64,000 nucleotides of DNA from Escherichia phage ELT1. Position 1 is the stretch's first letter. Each line of letters begins with the position of its first letter. The notes under the pieces are model-generated. The model ran no database searches. It was not told the origin of the DNA and saw only the letters and a program-made list of their open reading frames with translations. The position numbers and the translations under genes are program-made. Positions 1 through 13,384 of this stretch are shown piece by piece. The stretch is taken from the sequence record MZ892903.1; one strand, 5' to 3'.

Positions 1-143
1 TTAGCTCTAGACCCATAAGCATCATAATAAGCTTTTTCTTCGTGTTCACGCACTACAATATGGGGTTCATAATCAGTCGGAAACATATTAAGGGCAGAAA
101 CTGCCCCTACACGCTGATAACTTGGAATTACGAATTGAATCAT
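1..143 (-). CDS. N-terminal fragment of a glycosyltransferase-like gene running off the window edge; N-terminus MIQFVIPSYQRVGAV is unlike T4 beta-gt, possibly a T2/T6-type beta-alpha glucosyltransferase
   Basis: ATG at 143-141 on minus strand, open to position 1; ATGA overlap with stop of the seg-like ORF; absent from ORF track because <60 aa in window. Confidence 0.35.
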   Translation of the reverse strand, partial: MIQFVIPSYQRVGAVSALNMFPTDYEPHIVVREHEEKAYYDAYGSRA

Positions 144-781
144 TTAAGTGCCTTACATTTGTCAAAATGGTATCTTGTCATATTTGGCCCACGTCCTTTT
201 AGTCCGCAATGCGGACATATTTTTTCTATCAAATTATGAGGTTTTCCTTTACGATTTTTAGACATCGTTTCTTTAATTATTTTAGCTTTTTCTACGCCAA
301 AAATTTCTTCATAAGTTTTACCAGAATTTTCCTTGGCTCGATTTATAATTCCATATGCCTGCTCATTTTTACCATACATTGGATTACCTTCGCCTTTCAT
401 TCTTTTAGAATGATCAGGACGCTTGATTCCACGAAAGGCATTTCCGCACTTATATCTTTCTTCTGGAGATAGTTTTTTACCGTACATTCCATTTAATTTG
501 CCTGGAAAACTTCCTCCCCATGCTTCATTCTTTAAATTATATGAATCCGGACAATTAGCAGCATCTAAACAAGTTAAAATAATTTCTTCAACCTGTCTAA
601 ACATTGGTCCTTCATATAATATTTCTTTATTAAAGGATTTTATTCCATATTTCTTTTTAGCATGTTGCCAAACTACACCCGAACCATCATAATTCGGGTT
701 GTGACCATCATGACTTCCTATATACCACTTTTTAGTTTTAGGATGTTTATACTTATAAACATGTGGCACATTTACTTCCAT
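140..781 (-). CDS. seg-like GIY-YIG homing endonuclease with NUMOD3-type repeats
   Basis: 213 aa; VYKYKH...KWYIGS GIY-YIG-like N-terminus; repeated G.MYGKK/NPMYGK motifs; free-standing between gene 42 and the glycosyltransferase. Confidence 0.6.
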   Translation of the reverse strand: MEVNVPHVYKYKHPKTKKWYIGSHDGHNPNYDGSGVVWQHAKKKYGIKSFNKEILYEGPMFRQVEEIILTCLDAANCPDSYNLKNEAWGGSFPGKLNGMYGKKLSPEERYKCGNAFRGIKRPDHSKRMKGEGNPMYGKNEQAYGIINRAKENSGKTYEEIFGVEKAKIIKETMSKNRKGKPHNLIEKICPHCGLKGRGPNMTRYHFDKCKALK

Positions 782-1512
782 TTTCCAGTATAATCCTTTT
801 TAGCAATATGAGTCTCACCGGTGTTCCACCAATGGTCAACTAAATAAAACTGATTTTCGTACACATGAAGACTTCCAACGTTCCATATAATAGAACCTGC
901 TTTATATTGCCGCGATGGGTCGCCTGCATTCAAATCAGATACTAATTTATCTAGTACGTATTTTTGCCAAGCATAATCATTACGATAGCCTGCCCAGCAA
1001 TCATTGCTTCTCATGCTAACAACCGCATTGACTTTCTTATCACGAATCAGGTACTGTACTGTATTAGTACACATGAAATCTGACATACCATCTTTATTGT
1101 AGTCAAATTGCATGGATGGACGAGTATAAATCATGATACCACGTCGAGAATCAGGATTTTGACCAAGTTCAGCTAAACACATATCATACTGGGCATAGTT
1201 ATCTTCTGACCAGATAGCCCAACCATAATTCGAGTTAATTTCACCTTTAGAAGATGCTACCTGCTGCCAAATCTTCGGTGTTTCACCTGGAATATCTTTA
1301 ACAAACAGACTTTGAGACTTATACCATTCAAGTTCACGCTGAATGTATTCATCATTAAGAGCGCCAAAAATAAACGGTTCATCTGCTACAAATGATGCGC
1401 CAATAATTTCAATAGTTTTAACGCCAGTTTTATCAACTACGAAATCTTTTTCCTTTAATGCAAGCCCCAAATGAAGACGGATTTCTTCAACTGTCATAGA
1501 GTCACTAATCAT
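772..1512 (-). CDS. 42: dCMP hydroxymethylase
   Basis: 246 aa, same length and recognisable sequence as T4 gp42; synteny with imm and 43. Confidence 0.9.
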   Translation of the reverse strand: MISDSMTVEEIRLHLGLALKEKDFVVDKTGVKTIEIIGASFVADEPFIFGALNDEYIQRELEWYKSQSLFVKDIPGETPKIWQQVASSKGEINSNYGWAIWSEDNYAQYDMCLAELGQNPDSRRGIMIYTRPSMQFDYNKDGMSDFMCTNTVQYLIRDKKVNAVVSMRSNDCWAGYRNDYAWQKYVLDKLVSDLNAGDPSRQYKAGSIIWNVGSLHVYENQFYLVDHWWNTGETHIAKKDYTGKWK

Positions 1513-1665
1513 TTAAACCTCAATTGATACATTCATATTTAACTTGTAACAGTAATAAACCCCAACCTAAAATAATAGTTGGAATCATAAGAGGAACCGT
1601 TACACTATAGTATATACTTATTATAACCATCAAGATTAAAAGCAATGCTGTTATAATTTTGCTTT

Positions 1666-2636: not shown

Positions 2637-2725
2637 CGGTTTTGTGAAAAAATTTTTAATGAATTCCAGAGGTCCAGAATCATCTATTTTTCCTAAGTAT
2701 AGATTTATATTACTTGTATGAAAAA

Positions 2726-2741
2726 GGGACCCGGAGGTCCC
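2726..2741 (-). terminator. GC hairpin (GGGACC UCCG GGUCCC) plus U-run just after gene 43 stop
   Basis: Perfect 6-bp stem, 4-nt loop, followed by UUUUU on minus-strand transcript. Confidence 0.5.
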
Positions 2742-2754
2742 TAGATTTATTCTA

Positions 2755-5451
2755 TCAGCCAAACAGGAAGTCTAACGAAGCTTTTTCTTCATAGTCCATG
2801 CCAGCCGATTCACACATACCTGCAAGCGGTTTAACAAACGATTTTTGGAACAAAGTTGAATGGTCAATCCAAGATAGTACATCAGAACGAATTTCTTTTG
2901 GAAGTTCTGTACCCGATGGCCAAGCAATGCACTTGTCACCAAATGGATTTCCTTCACGTAATGGAAGAACCATTACTTTATTTCCATCCAAAATTGGAGC
3001 TACACCTAGACCACTAACAGCTCGACGATAAGTTAGCACACCGCGAATATGGAATGGGCATTTAAACCCTGGCCAACCTTTATCATCATATTTCGCTATA
3101 TCGTTCGCGGTTTTTACTTCAGCAATAACTTTATAGTCAAGTTGACGATATTCTTTCTCGAAGTTCTTGTAGTATTCTTGGACGGACTCTTCACCTTCCT
3201 GAAGAATACGACGAATACTTTCTTCGAGAGCTTCTTGTACTGCTTTTGGTGTTGAACTCTGCTGAGTTTCCATACCCATGATTTTTAAATGCGGTTCAGC
3301 AAATCGCTTATCTTCCATATCATAAACGTTCAGAGCATAACGCTTTTTCGCTTTCCAAAATCCACCAACACCCTTTGAACCAAGTGGAGGGCAAGAAATA
3401 GCTTCACGGTCCATATGCATCAGATGCTCGCGGTTATTCATATAATCACATAACTCACGATATGCAACATCAATCATAGGTTCCATCTTTTTCTTACCGA
3501 ACTGATTCATAAATTCAACCAAATCGTTCTGCTCTTTGAATCGGTCAAGACCAACTTTTTCAATAACTTTATCTACACAAACATATACCGAATCAGTATC
3601 ACCTGCTGCAATGAAATCTTCGCCATTAGTTCCGCATACTTTATTCAGATATTCATTAATTTTACGAGCAATCCACTGAATACCAACTTGGCCGAAAATT
3701 GTGATAGCAGTAGCATTTCGCAAATCATAGTAACGGAAATGAATATTACCAAGAGCACCGTAAAGACTGTTAATGAGAATTTTACGGTTCAGCTGATTTG
3801 TGTTAGCAAGTGTAGCAGCTTTTTCACATTCCTCAATCAGACTATTGAGAACAGATTCGGTGTAATTCGATAGTTCATTTAAGAAATCATCACTGAACTT
3901 AACATATCGTTCAACTTCTGGTTTAGTTGAACAAGACCCTGCGCCTTTCATAATAATCTTTTTAATAGCTTCGGCATTCATTTCTTCAGCGAACATTTTC
4001 TTTTTCCAATCTTTACGCTGGAAAAATACTTTAGCGATTTCCTTTGGAATGATACCTTCTTGATGCTTATCATACATCCATCCATTCGGAGAACAAGAAT
4101 ATTCATCACTCGGTTTAGGAGCTGTTCCTGCAATATATTCATGAATTGGATGAACTTTAAACTGCCCACGAATAGTCTCAGGACTAATGTTAACCTGACG
4201 AATAATGCTAGGATACAGAGACGTCAAGTCAAAACTCATAATATATCGACGAGCAATTGGTTTAGGTTCAAACACAAATGCACCCGGAAAACTTTGTTTA
4301 ACGTGCGAACCCTGTTGAGGAATAACCTTATGTTCACCTTTCAATGAGTTAAAAATAATAGCATCCCAAGTTTTAATAGGACTCATTACACCAGAAAAAG
4401 GCATTTTAGCGTAATAAGACATACTTAAAACTAGATCGATAAACCCGCGAATTTTATCAATTGCTTGAACTGATTCTACGTCAATGATGTTATAACTAAT
4501 GTATCGTTGATGATTAGTCTCACGAAGTTTATTAATAGGACCGTCGTATGGTAATTTACCTTTTTTGGTTTCATGTTGAGCAACTGATTCCAAAGAGAAT
4601 GACGGCAAATTAGTAAAAGCAAATTTCTTGTACAAATCTAAATAATCAAGAATAGATACACCATCAATAGAATAAATTTCTTTGCTGCCGTACATATTTT
4701 GAATTAGTTTAGATTTTACTCGACCGATTGGAGAGAAGCGTTTCATACTACGTTCACCGAGAACCATTTTAACGCGATTCATGATATACGGAACGTCAAA
4801 TCCCTCAATATTCCAACCAGTAAAAATAGCAGGTCGTTTCTGTTCCCAGAGATTGATATATTCCATGAGCATATCACGCTCATTATCGAATGGCATATAA
4901 ATTACTCGGTCAAGAATTTCTTGAGGAACTTCATCACCACCTTCACAGTCAAGCTTAGCAGCTAACTTTGCATCCCATTTTGATACTGAACCATACATTG
5001 AATTCAAAAGGTCGAAAACATAAAAACGATCGTCAATTGAATCATAATGAGTGATAGCATCAATTTCATATTCTGCTTTCATTGGGTCAGGAAATTTATC
5101 GCCAGTAACCTCAATGTCACAGTTAGCTACACGAACAAATTTTCGGTCATAAACAATTTCTGAACCATACGTATCACTGATATAAGCGAGTTTAAAATCG
5201 TTCATACCAAGAGCTTCGAGACCGATGTCTTCCATTCGCTTCATCCAATCTCGTGCATCTTTCATTGATGGAAATTTTTGAGGAGCGCAATTTTTACCAT
5301 AGATGTCTTTATATTTTGACTCTTCCTTACAATGCCTAAACATAGTCGGAAGATATTCTACTTCACGAGTACGTTCCTTTCCGTTTTCATCAATATAACG
5401 CTCAACAATGTTATTTCCGACTGTTTCAATAGAGATATAAAATTCTTTCAT
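2755..5451 (-). CDS. 43: DNA polymerase (family B) with 3'-5' exonuclease
   Basis: 898 aa, same length as T4 gp43; motifs DIE (exo), SLYPS, YGDTDS present. Confidence 0.97.
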   Translation of the reverse strand: MKEFYISIETVGNNIVERYIDENGKERTREVEYLPTMFRHCKEESKYKDIYGKNCAPQKFPSMKDARDWMKRMEDIGLEALGMNDFKLAYISDTYGSEIVYDRKFVRVANCDIEVTGDKFPDPMKAEYEIDAITHYDSIDDRFYVFDLLNSMYGSVSKWDAKLAAKLDCEGGDEVPQEILDRVIYMPFDNERDMLMEYINLWEQKRPAIFTGWNIEGFDVPYIMNRVKMVLGERSMKRFSPIGRVKSKLIQNMYGSKEIYSIDGVSILDYLDLYKKFAFTNLPSFSLESVAQHETKKGKLPYDGPINKLRETNHQRYISYNIIDVESVQAIDKIRGFIDLVLSMSYYAKMPFSGVMSPIKTWDAIIFNSLKGEHKVIPQQGSHVKQSFPGAFVFEPKPIARRYIMSFDLTSLYPSIIRQVNISPETIRGQFKVHPIHEYIAGTAPKPSDEYSCSPNGWMYDKHQEGIIPKEIAKVFFQRKDWKKKMFAEEMNAEAIKKIIMKGAGSCSTKPEVERYVKFSDDFLNELSNYTESVLNSLIEECEKAATLANTNQLNRKILINSLYGALGNIHFRYYDLRNATAITIFGQVGIQWIARKINEYLNKVCGTNGEDFIAAGDTDSVYVCVDKVIEKVGLDRFKEQNDLVEFMNQFGKKKMEPMIDVAYRELCDYMNNREHLMHMDREAISCPPLGSKGVGGFWKAKKRYALNVYDMEDKRFAEPHLKIMGMETQQSSTPKAVQEALEESIRRILQEGEESVQEYYKNFEKEYRQLDYKVIAEVKTANDIAKYDDKGWPGFKCPFHIRGVLTYRRAVSGLGVAPILDGNKVMVLPLREGNPFGDKCIAWPSGTELPKEIRSDVLSWIDHSTLFQKSFVKPLAGMCESAGMDYEEKASLDFLFG

Positions 5452-12183: not shown

Positions 12184-13384
12184 ATTTTGTAATAATGTCA
12201 AACTGTTCTTTAAAGCAGAAGCTTGAATCTTGATGCTGATACAAAAATTCATAAGCTTTTTCACGTTCGCGGTCATAAAGAGTTCGGTCAGATGACAGTT
12301 CTTTAATACGTTCAAATGTTGATTCCATGTCATTTTCATCAAACCAAATGATACCGCTATCATGCGAGGTCAAAGGAGTATTATCAACACGGAATTTTAA
12401 ATTATCACCCGTTGATTTCCAAAATACCGGAATTGTACCGCAAGCACCTAATTCAAGATGAGTATATTCGAGTGAGCGTTGTAAGTATTTCTGGTTAAGT
12501 TTACTCAACTGATATCCAAAGCCAGATTTACTCATTCGTTCAAGCATTTCACTATTAATATAACAATCTAGGATTTGTGCCGGTTGATTCGGCGTGAGAT
12601 TCATTTTATCAATCTCACGATTACCATAATATTCATACGGAATACCTTTTTCCTTAATTGCAATAAAAGCAGGGGAACGTTCAAGACCTTCCATTACAGT
12701 GGATTTACCAGCAGGTTTTAAGAATTTTTCGTGAAAATCAAACATCTGATAAAAACCTTTCCATGTAGTCGTACGACCAATCCAACGGTTGATGTTCATG
12801 TTAATTTCAGAAACATCTTTCCAATAAGTTGACCGAACCTTCGCAATATCCATAGGAGGCTGAAAATTATATACTGTTGGTGCTTCTTCAATATCATCAA
12901 ACAGAGAAACAGTTTCTGGATACCATTCTTTCATCAGAACTTTATTAAAATCACCATTATCAGAATGGCTAAAAATAACATCAGCTCGACGAACAGTTTC
13001 TTCTAATCCCAAATTTCGACGCAAAGAAAGCACAGAATGATCATGCTGATAAACTACAACACGAATAGAAGGTTTAATATTATCTAAAAGTTTTTTATAG
13101 TTATTAATCGTAGCTTCTTGAACGGAAGTAGCAGGAACAGAATTAATAATTAGAATATCACAATCATTTACCAGCTTAAGTGCTTTATCGTATTCTTTAG
13201 CTAAAATAACTGGAATTGAAAATGATTTGTGGTCATGAGAACTTGTACGAGTAAATGATTTATCTTTAGCATAAACCAAAGTTACTTCATGACCATTTTT
13301 AATAAACCAATCACGCTGCTCAAGAGAAAATTTAGTTACACCGCAACCTTCAAGGCCCCGAGCCAGAAAAATGCATACTTTCAT
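12182..13384 (-). CDS. a-gt: DNA alpha-glucosyltransferase
   Basis: 400 aa as in T4 a-gt; synteny after gene 47. Confidence 0.8.
   Translation of the reverse strand: MKVCIFLARGLEGCGVTKFSLEQRDWFIKNGHEVTLVYAKDKSFTRTSSHDHKSFSIPVILAKEYDKALKLVNDCDILIINSVPATSVQEATINNYKKLLDNIKPSIRVVVYQHDHSVLSLRRNLGLEETVRRADVIFSHSDNGDFNKVLMKEWYPETVSLFDDIEEAPTVYNFQPPMDIAKVRSTYWKDVSEINMNINRWIGRTTTWKGFYQMFDFHEKFLKPAGKSTVMEGLERSPAFIAIKEKGIPYEYYGNREIDKMNLTPNQPAQILDCYINSEMLERMSKSGFGYQLSKLNQKYLQRSLEYTHLELGACGTIPVFWKSTGDNLKFRVDNTPLTSHDSGIIWFDENDMESTFERIKELSSDRTLYDREREKAYEFLYQHQDSSFCFKEQFDIITK

Follow-up and report, generated by a model that had tools for sequence, protein, structure and literature searches.

A Seg-type homing endonuclease gene between gene 42 and a T2/T6-type glucosyltransferase gene in Escherichia phage ELT1, with a probable co-conversion footprint in gene 42

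Introduction

The free-standing homing endonucleases of bacteriophage T4 cut hundreds to thousands of base pairs (bp) away from their own genes, within a conserved neighbouring gene, and repair of these cuts results in co-conversion of flanking markers and in marker exclusion (PMC2988022). SegF and SegG are GIY-YIG enzymes of this kind, with genes wedged between conserved T-even genes and with targets in gene 56 and gene 32, respectively (PMC2988022). Here we describe a comparable locus in a stretch of 64,000 nucleotides (nt) from Escherichia phage ELT1 (MZ892903.1), referred to below as the window. At one end of the window, a gene for a 213-residue Seg-type endonuclease (here called seg) lies between gene 42, which encodes dCMP hydroxymethylase, and ggt (also called ba-gt), which encodes a glucosyltransferase of the T2/T6 type. 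We consider it likely, at a probability of about 0.7, that this is a T2/T6-type locus in which seg was inserted at the gene 42/ggt junction and has spread by intronless homing, with co-conversion of part of gene 42.

The ELT1 locus resembles those of SegF and SegG in several respects: a free-standing GIY-YIG gene between conserved genes, a patchy distribution, linkage to a divergent form of the essential gene beside it and, as expected from these precedents, a probable cut in that gene with co-conversion (PMC2988022). It differs in that the neighbour is gene 42 and in the C2HC module at the C-terminus of the protein, and it is known from sequences alone. T4 SegA belongs to the same family and occupies the same interval between gene 42 and uvsX, but sits on the other side of the transferase, between b-gt and uvsX, and cuts uvsX (PMC2988022). 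I-TevI of the td intron has the same modular layout of nuclease, linker and DNA-binding end, and the N-terminal domain of our predicted model superposes on it. The ELT1 gene, in contrast, is not intron-encoded, its product is only 19-20% identical to I-TevI in sequence, and the DNA-binding end is of another kind.

The gene that follows gene 42 also bears on DNA modification. T2 and T6 use alpha-gt together with ba-gt to produce gentiobiosyl-hydroxymethylcytosine (gentiobiosyl-hmC), which is known from T2 (5%) and T6 (72%) (PMC6024577). An initial annotation of the window proposed that the glucosylation of this phage might differ from that of T4, and that the endonuclease might be what swapped the locus.

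Results

A clean insertion between gene 42 and ggt

Every element of the locus lies on the minus strand. Gene 42 (772..1512) encodes a protein of 246 residues (Pfam Thymidylat_synt, 54 bits) with 93-95% amino acid identity to gp42 of T4, T2 and T6. At its ATG end, seg (140..781) shares 10 nt with the end of gene 42, and its stop codon, TGA, overlaps the start codon of ggt in the sequence ATGA. The ggt reading frame starts at 143 with the N-terminus MIQFVIPSYQRVGAV and runs off the edge of the window after 47 codons (1..143). A megablast search with window positions 1..1600 returned 502 phage records, all T4-like, the best being Escherichia phage HY03 at 99.4%.

Comparison of the junction with T2, PD112 and Jiaodavirus places a 632-bp insertion relative to T2/T6 at 144..775. 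Relative to T2 it is clean and reads ...TGGAA/GTAAATG...CACTTAA/ATGATTCAA..., and the insertion point, TGGAA/ATGA, is the same in Tequatrovirus and Jiaodavirus. An endonuclease with at least 95% amino acid identity is found in 77 records, of which 71 reach 99% or more, and among the matches listed every such gene sits between gene 42 and ggt. About 400 further records, T2 and T6 included, carry ggt and no endonuclease; there the stop codon of gene 42 overlaps the start of ggt, again as ATGA.

The 3′ end of gene 42 is a mosaic linked to seg

Over its first 500 nt, gene 42 is that of an ordinary Tequatrovirus, with 13-25 differences from T6, T4 and T2 (25 from T2). The 3′ 240 nt are mosaic. In patch 1 (985..1012), 18 of 28 nt differ from T2, T6 and T4, such that RSND-VVFGF, a conserved catalytic-loop motif, is replaced by (M)RSND-CWAGY; the R, S and D are also encoded by other, synonymous codons. 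The 62 nt that follow (923..984) contain 1-2 differences (1 from T2) and no coding change. Patch 1b (913..922) differs at 3-5 of 10 nt and gives GD-PS-R in place of GD-ST-R or GD-PT-R, while patch 2 (844..859) differs at 7-8 of 16 nt (8 from T2) and gives HVY-ENQ in place of HVY-SRH. The last 72 nt of the gene (772..843) hold 16-18 differences (16 from T2). These comparisons are from gene-by-gene alignments, as an alignment across the insertion had misplaced T2 ggt against seg.

The mosaic and its linkage to seg can be read directly from the genomes. We compiled a haplotype table of 19 phages and directly inspected the window, six other seg+ genomes and six seg-less CWAGY genomes. Patches 1, 1b and 2 are never separated in the table and are present in the window and in all six compared seg+ genomes. 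Sites in gene 42 to the left of nt ~497 are, by comparison, freely shuffled between seg+ and seg- phages. Across database records, identity to the 259-nt tract falls into two main groups (82 records at 95% or above, 4 at 90-95%, 420 at 80-90%), and the 86 records with at least 90% identity are roughly matched by the 77 seg+ records together with 8 seg-less ones.

These 8 records represent seven phages that carry all of the patches without seg: PD112, CE1, CJY920, T4_ev151, BYEP01, EO1 and ERS-1. Their gene 42 reverts to the T2 type at several different breakpoints within the ~50 nt before the insertion point. Such genomes would be expected if conversion sets out from gene 42 and sometimes stops short of seg. 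Beyond the insertion, in ggt, no seg-linked haplotype was seen, and the ggt of JK23, a seg+ phage, is T2-like from nt 21 onward.

Across the gp42 family, the two main patches take two covarying states, RSND-xWAG[YF] with HxY-xxQ and RSND-x[VI][FYL]G[FY] with HxY-xxH. This covariation suggests that the catalytic-loop and HxY segments of dCMP hydroxymethylase contact each other. As to where the patches came from, Jiaodavirus and Yersinia phage MHG19 were rejected as direct donors, since they are only about 45-80% identical in nucleotides over the tract; a 17-mer of the tract, AATGATTGCTGGGCAGG, is common to the window and one Jiaodavirus.

The endonuclease clade follows gene 42

More distant relatives of the endonuclease place it relative to its neighbours. 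In Klebsiella phages of the genus Jiaodavirus, a 70%-identical orthologue occupies exactly the same point, with ggt downstream. In MHG19, an orthologue of 65% identity follows gene 42 and the next gene is a T4-like b-gt, and in environmental T4-like contigs orthologues of 58-62% follow gene 42 with quite different genes downstream. Three distant homologues (44-53%) lie in unrelated neighbourhoods, each immediately 3′ of a gene of the thymidylate-synthase family (PF00303). Because the homologues follow a gene of the gene 42 type whatever lies downstream, the clade is anchored to gene 42 or a thymidylate-synthase-family gene and not to the transferase, and this holds in every context examined. 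Among 88 loci scanned, all seg homologues and remnants follow a gp42 of the WAG[YF] type and none follow the VVFG type.

The neighbourhoods of the distant homologues (comparison loci L099-L102) depart from the order 43-imm-42-ggt-uvsX and contain nucleotide-sugar enzymes, a helicase and an NTP-transferase. The three distant homologues follow genes of the VF..H type. We had entertained WAGY as a universal immunity signature of the clade and rejected it on this ground; it is also contradicted by Jiaodavirus, all of which carry CWAGY with or without seg.

Degenerate copies also exist: a 30-residue remnant in Jiaodavirus GF, 35-residue remnants in three comparison loci (L073-75) and split matches in REP2 and Shinka. 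This pattern of presence, absence and remnants is the gain, decay and loss typical of homing endonucleases. In Klebsiella phage vB_KpnM_GF (L008, 1864-2600), a deletion extends from nt ~632 of gene 42 into the endonuclease gene, leaving a gp42 of 214 residues without the HVY motif and the 30-residue endonuclease remnant. The record is labelled a partial genome, and the deletion may be an assembly error.

The order of genes between gene 42 and uvsX varies between phages: 42, b-gt, segA, uvsX in T4; 42, ggt, segA-like, uvsX in PD112; and 42, seg, b-gt, uvsX in MHG19. PD112 (L089, 3611-4276) combines a T2-type ggt and a T4 SegA-like gene with the CWAGY/ENQ patches of gene 42 and no endonuclease of the ELT1 clade, a combination that points to free reassortment of modules in this interval. 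SegA and the present clade thus combine independently with either transferase, PD112 pairing ggt with the segA-like gene and MHG19 pairing the seg clade with b-gt. In HY03 (L002, 5378-7600, beyond the left edge of the window), uvsX is annotated in two pieces around a homing-endonuclease gene of 723 nt, a second mobile element only ~1 kb from seg.

Family, fold and conserved residues of the endonuclease

The initial annotation had read the 213-residue frame as a GIY-YIG/NUMOD3 protein located between gene 42 and the next gene. Its coordinates, PHROG match, similarity to SegA, the domains of its homologues and a structure model bear this out, whereas Pfam on this protein alone does not. The protein matches PHROG 314, "homing endonuclease" (E 2e-31), and aligns by BLASTP with T4 SegA at 32% identity over 167 residues (E 4e-9), a span that covers the GIY-YIG domain and the first NUMOD3 region. 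Similarity to the T4 Seg proteins is low overall, at 32% for SegA and 35% for SegC over the N-terminal 62%. T4 SegA itself passes the Pfam cutoffs for GIY-YIG (37.4 bits) and NUMOD3. The ELT1 protein gave no Pfam GIY-YIG match (PF01541) at E ≤ 0.1, a sub-threshold NUMOD3 match (PF07460; 18.0 bits, cutoff 20.4) and a sub-threshold NCBIfam match to TIGR01453. The orthologue in MHG19 reaches 21.7 bits for NUMOD3, and in precomputed domain assignments for 70 homologue clusters PF07460 is present in 30, SegE_GIY-YIG (PF19835) in 7 and PF01541 in 2. The missing PF01541 match is a limit of model sensitivity and not a defining biological feature.

An AlphaFold model built from a 49-sequence alignment has a mean predicted local distance difference test score (pLDDT) of 87.8; a single-sequence model was discarded at pLDDT 40. 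Foldseek ranks two structures of the I-TevI catalytic domain, 1MK0 and 1LN0, highest for the model (probability 1.00, target template-modelling (TM) score 0.63-0.67, E 2.7e-3). The best, 1MK0, has a target TM score of 0.67 and a root-mean-square deviation of 2.8 Å over 100 columns. A PDB search with a profile of three endonuclease sequences yielded no relevant match, only a chance one at E 0.35. PHROG 314, the SegA similarity, the domains of the homologue clusters and the I-TevI-like model together identify the reading frame as a Seg-type free-standing GIY-YIG endonuclease.

The GIY and YIG motifs take the form V8-Y9-K10-Y11 and W19-Y20-I21-G22, on model strands at residues 7-12 and 19-24. Across the 49 homologues Y20, G22 and N82 are invariant, Y9 is at least 90% conserved, and the pair E65/E66 is the majority consensus. 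Where I-TevI has R27, the conserved sequence of the family is Y31-x-G33-S34-G35, as in T4 SegA. The predicted layout is a GIY-YIG domain at residues ~7-95, NUMOD3-like helices at ~100-150 and a C-terminal module. In this module C189, C192, H205 and C209 form a C2HC cluster that is conserved among the homologues and lies on a predicted beta-hairpin and helix; the C-terminus is predicted to be a beta-beta-alpha, zinc-finger-like DNA-binding end.

GenBank names for the protein are "hypothetical protein", "homing endonuclease" and "site-specific intron-like DNA endonuclease", and a literature search found no publication on this particular enzyme. The enzyme belongs to the well-known Seg class as an ordinary, uncharacterised member.

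The second glucosyltransferase is of the T2/T6 type

The 47 residues of ggt in the window are identical to those of HY03 (100%) and match T2 ggt at 45 of 47 positions. In HY03 and others the full-length protein has 280 residues and is annotated as a beta-glucosyl-HMC-alpha-glucosyltransferase. The HY03 protein is 95.7% identical to that enzyme of T2 and 95.0% to that of T6, and matches PHROG 842 (E 3e-87) and, above cutoff, Pfam PF20691 TAGT. Against T4 beta-gt, BLASTP finds no similarity (E = 4.2), as the initial annotation had suspected from the N-terminus; the full-length comparison it called for, made with the HY03 protein, sides with T2 and T6. A tblastn search with T4 b-gt found no T4-type gene in the 64-kb window, and a PDB sequence search with ggt gave no match. 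To judge from the 47 codons in the window and the full-length relative, the second glucosyltransferase is very probably the T2/T6 ggt, unrelated to T4 beta-gt. It has the same position after gene 42 as in T2 and T6, differing in that it is here parted from gene 42 by the endonuclease gene.

The supplier of its substrate, alpha-glucosyl-hmC, is also encoded in the window (alpha-gt, 12185..13384, minus strand, 400 residues; Pfam PF11440 AGT, 855 bits). To judge from the orthology of these genes, the glucosylation chemistry would be of the T2/T6 type, and gentiobiosyl-hmC would be the product of ggt. The suggestion that glucosylation differs from that of T4 is thus supported, although as a common condition rather than an unusual one. 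Phage records with ggt at 90% identity or more number 474, against 29 for T4-type b-gt at the same threshold. A ggt after gene 42 is the usual state of Tequatrovirus, and T4 is the exception.

Several other features of ggt were seen. In the T6 record (MH550421; L004, 2528-2530, corresponding to window 114..116), codon 10 is an in-frame TAG (SY*RVG), and the annotated gene begins at Met20; at codon 10 the window, T2 and HY03 all have a sense codon. The TAG may be a laboratory-strain mutation, a sequencing error or a sign that the N-terminus is dispensable. A hairpin, TAGGGGCAGTTTCTGCCCTTA, flagged as terminator-like, lies at window 89..109 (minus strand) within ggt codons 12-18. Its stem, GGGGCAG/CTGCCC, is kept in the ggt of T2 and Jiaodavirus, and such a structure in the RNA may influence the expression of ggt. 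In Moon/CC31-like phages (L014-L018, about 3235-5140), a ggt homologue (63-65%) and a beta-gt homologue (49-50%) stand in tandem directly after gene 42, so both types of transferase coexist in some genera.

Neighbouring features of the window

Gene 43, for DNA polymerase (2755..5451, minus strand), precedes small membrane-protein reading frames that include imm, and then gene 42. Just downstream of its stop codon, at 2725..2742, is a perfect, GC-rich hairpin, AGGGACC(TCCG)GGTCCCT, with a T-run, which is likely a transcription terminator after the polymerase gene. In a promoter scan, sigma-70-like sites were no more common than in shuffled controls (14 against 13.1). Upstream of seg, neither a T4 late promoter (TATAAATA) nor a MotA box was found.

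Discussion

The favoured explanation of this locus is homing with co-conversion of gene 42. During mixed infection, the endonuclease would cut the VVFGF-type gene 42 of a seg-less relative, within its last ~250 bp. The break would be repaired from the seg+ genome, and seg would be copied in together with the adjoining 3′ part of gene 42. The seg+ genome would be protected by its own divergent CWAGY/ENQ allele. The position of the cut is suggested by a four-way fit to the free-standing endonucleases of T4: the clade is anchored to gene 42, the converted tract is asymmetric and lies on the gene-42 side, substitutions are dense in a conserved motif, and there are genomes with the tract and without seg. 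Patch 1 would be the leading candidate for both the endonuclease target and the immunity polymorphism, and the CWAGY/ENQ allele would be refractory by virtue of its patches.

Several observations weigh against this account or parts of it. CWAGY/xxQ is native to whole lineages, namely all Jiaodavirus (seg+ or seg-) and many seg-less environmental phages, and for this reason the patches are probably imported donor sequence rather than evolved immunity. Since WA..Q and V[FY]..H covary, epistasis alone could keep patches 1 and 2 together, and linkage over 250 bp could be hitch-hiking. The link to WAGY is not universal, as the VF..H-type genes beside the three distant homologues show, and target specificity must have shifted within the family. 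At the level of database records, the linkage of seg and CWAGY in Tequatrovirus is a matching of counts, which is compatible with complete linkage but falls short of proof. A catalytic arginine of the GIY-YIG motif is not assignable at the I-TevI R27 position. Finally, the nuclease activity and the cut site are both deduced by comparing sequences.

A more specific version of homing is tentative, and we would hold it as somewhat doubtful. It states that the endonuclease targets the DNA encoding the RSND-VVFGF loop, and that immunity needs the CWAGY replacement, which is tolerated only with the coupled change of SRH to ENQ 130 nt downstream. If this is true, a selfish nuclease is spreading among Tequatrovirus phages an epistatically coupled replacement of two patches in the active-site region of an essential enzyme, and the seven seg-less phages that carry the patches are converted "survivors".

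A different target is conceivable, although we think it unlikely: the endonuclease would recognise the gene 42/ggt junction, in the manner of intron-encoded homing endonucleases, the insertion would provide immunity by disrupting the site, and the gene-42 patches would hitch-hike and be kept by matching for enzyme function. The sequence TGGAAATGATTCA is indeed conserved between Tequatrovirus and Jiaodavirus, with identical insertion points, and, given the family-wide covariation of WA and Q, epistasis could by itself hold the patches together. Jiaodavirus phages without seg already have CWAGY, yet some of their relatives acquired seg. In other lineages, however, the homologue occupies an intergenic spacer behind gene 42 and the genes downstream are unrelated; because these junctions differ, the conserved one cannot be the common target. 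A cut at the junction also fits poorly with the asymmetry of conversion, about 270 nt on the gene-42 side against fewer than 20 nt on the ggt side, and with characterised free-standing T4 endonucleases, which cut far from their own genes (PMC2988022). Less probable still is that the reading frame has lost, or never had, the mobility of a homing endonuclease, and is instead a decaying passenger or a nuclease for excluding competitors or attacking host or foreign DNA. The failure of the Pfam GIY-YIG model to find its domain in the 213-residue protein and the lack of an assignable catalytic arginine could be taken this way, and other benefits have been assigned to Seg enzymes, such as the involvement of SegB in amplification of anti-defence loci (PMC13096335). 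Yet dozens of phages with otherwise shuffled flanks share an intact frame at 99-100% identity. Conservation over the 49 homologues extends to Y9, Y20, G22, N82 and the C2HC cluster, the fold model is a confident GIY-YIG, and the pattern of presence, absence and remnants is the classic life cycle of a homing endonuclease.

The proposal that the endonuclease swapped the locus would have a break near gene 42 repaired across the whole cassette, with T4-type b-gt replaced by T2/T6-type ggt. The mechanism is conceivable: if a break in T4 gene 42 were repaired from a seg+ donor, the homology needed downstream would lie in uvsX, and seg and ggt would come in place of b-gt and segA. The clade is also found beside both transferase types (ggt, and b-gt in MHG19), and the 42-uvsX interval has been described as highly plastic (PMC6024577). 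The data do not support it, and we judge it very improbable. A ggt directly after gene 42 is the majority state by 474 records to 29, and about 400 of these records, T2 and T6 among them, lack seg. The insertion is a clean 632 bp in a pre-existing gene 42/ggt junction, no haplotype on the ggt side goes with seg, and the clade goes with gene 42. Nor do seg+ phages have a distinct allele of ggt; that of HY03 is 98.9% identical to those of seg-less phages, and that of JK23 is T2-like at its 5′ end. The evidence fits a history in which seg brought the 3′ end of gene 42 and not the transferase, and whole-cassette conversion in crosses with T4-type phages is speculation.

In their second glucosyltransferase, most Tequatrovirus phages are T2/T6-like and not T4-like. 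This confirms textbook T-even biology and is not new, but the type of transferase has practical use in predicting sensitivity to host defences directed at hmC or glucosyl-hmC. The modestly interesting feature of the ELT1 locus lies in gene 42, where the pattern around the catalytic loop of dCMP hydroxymethylase fits a footprint left by co-conversion in nature. In very different phages the seg clade consistently has thymidylate-synthase-family genes as its neighbours, and natural isolates supply three alleles of gene 42: seg+, seg-less "converted" and seg-less "naive". These alleles are a ready system in which to map a new homing site, and to ask whether homing forces coupled amino acid replacements in an essential enzyme. 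The locus is also an example of recombination boundaries being set by homing endonucleases in T-even genomes.

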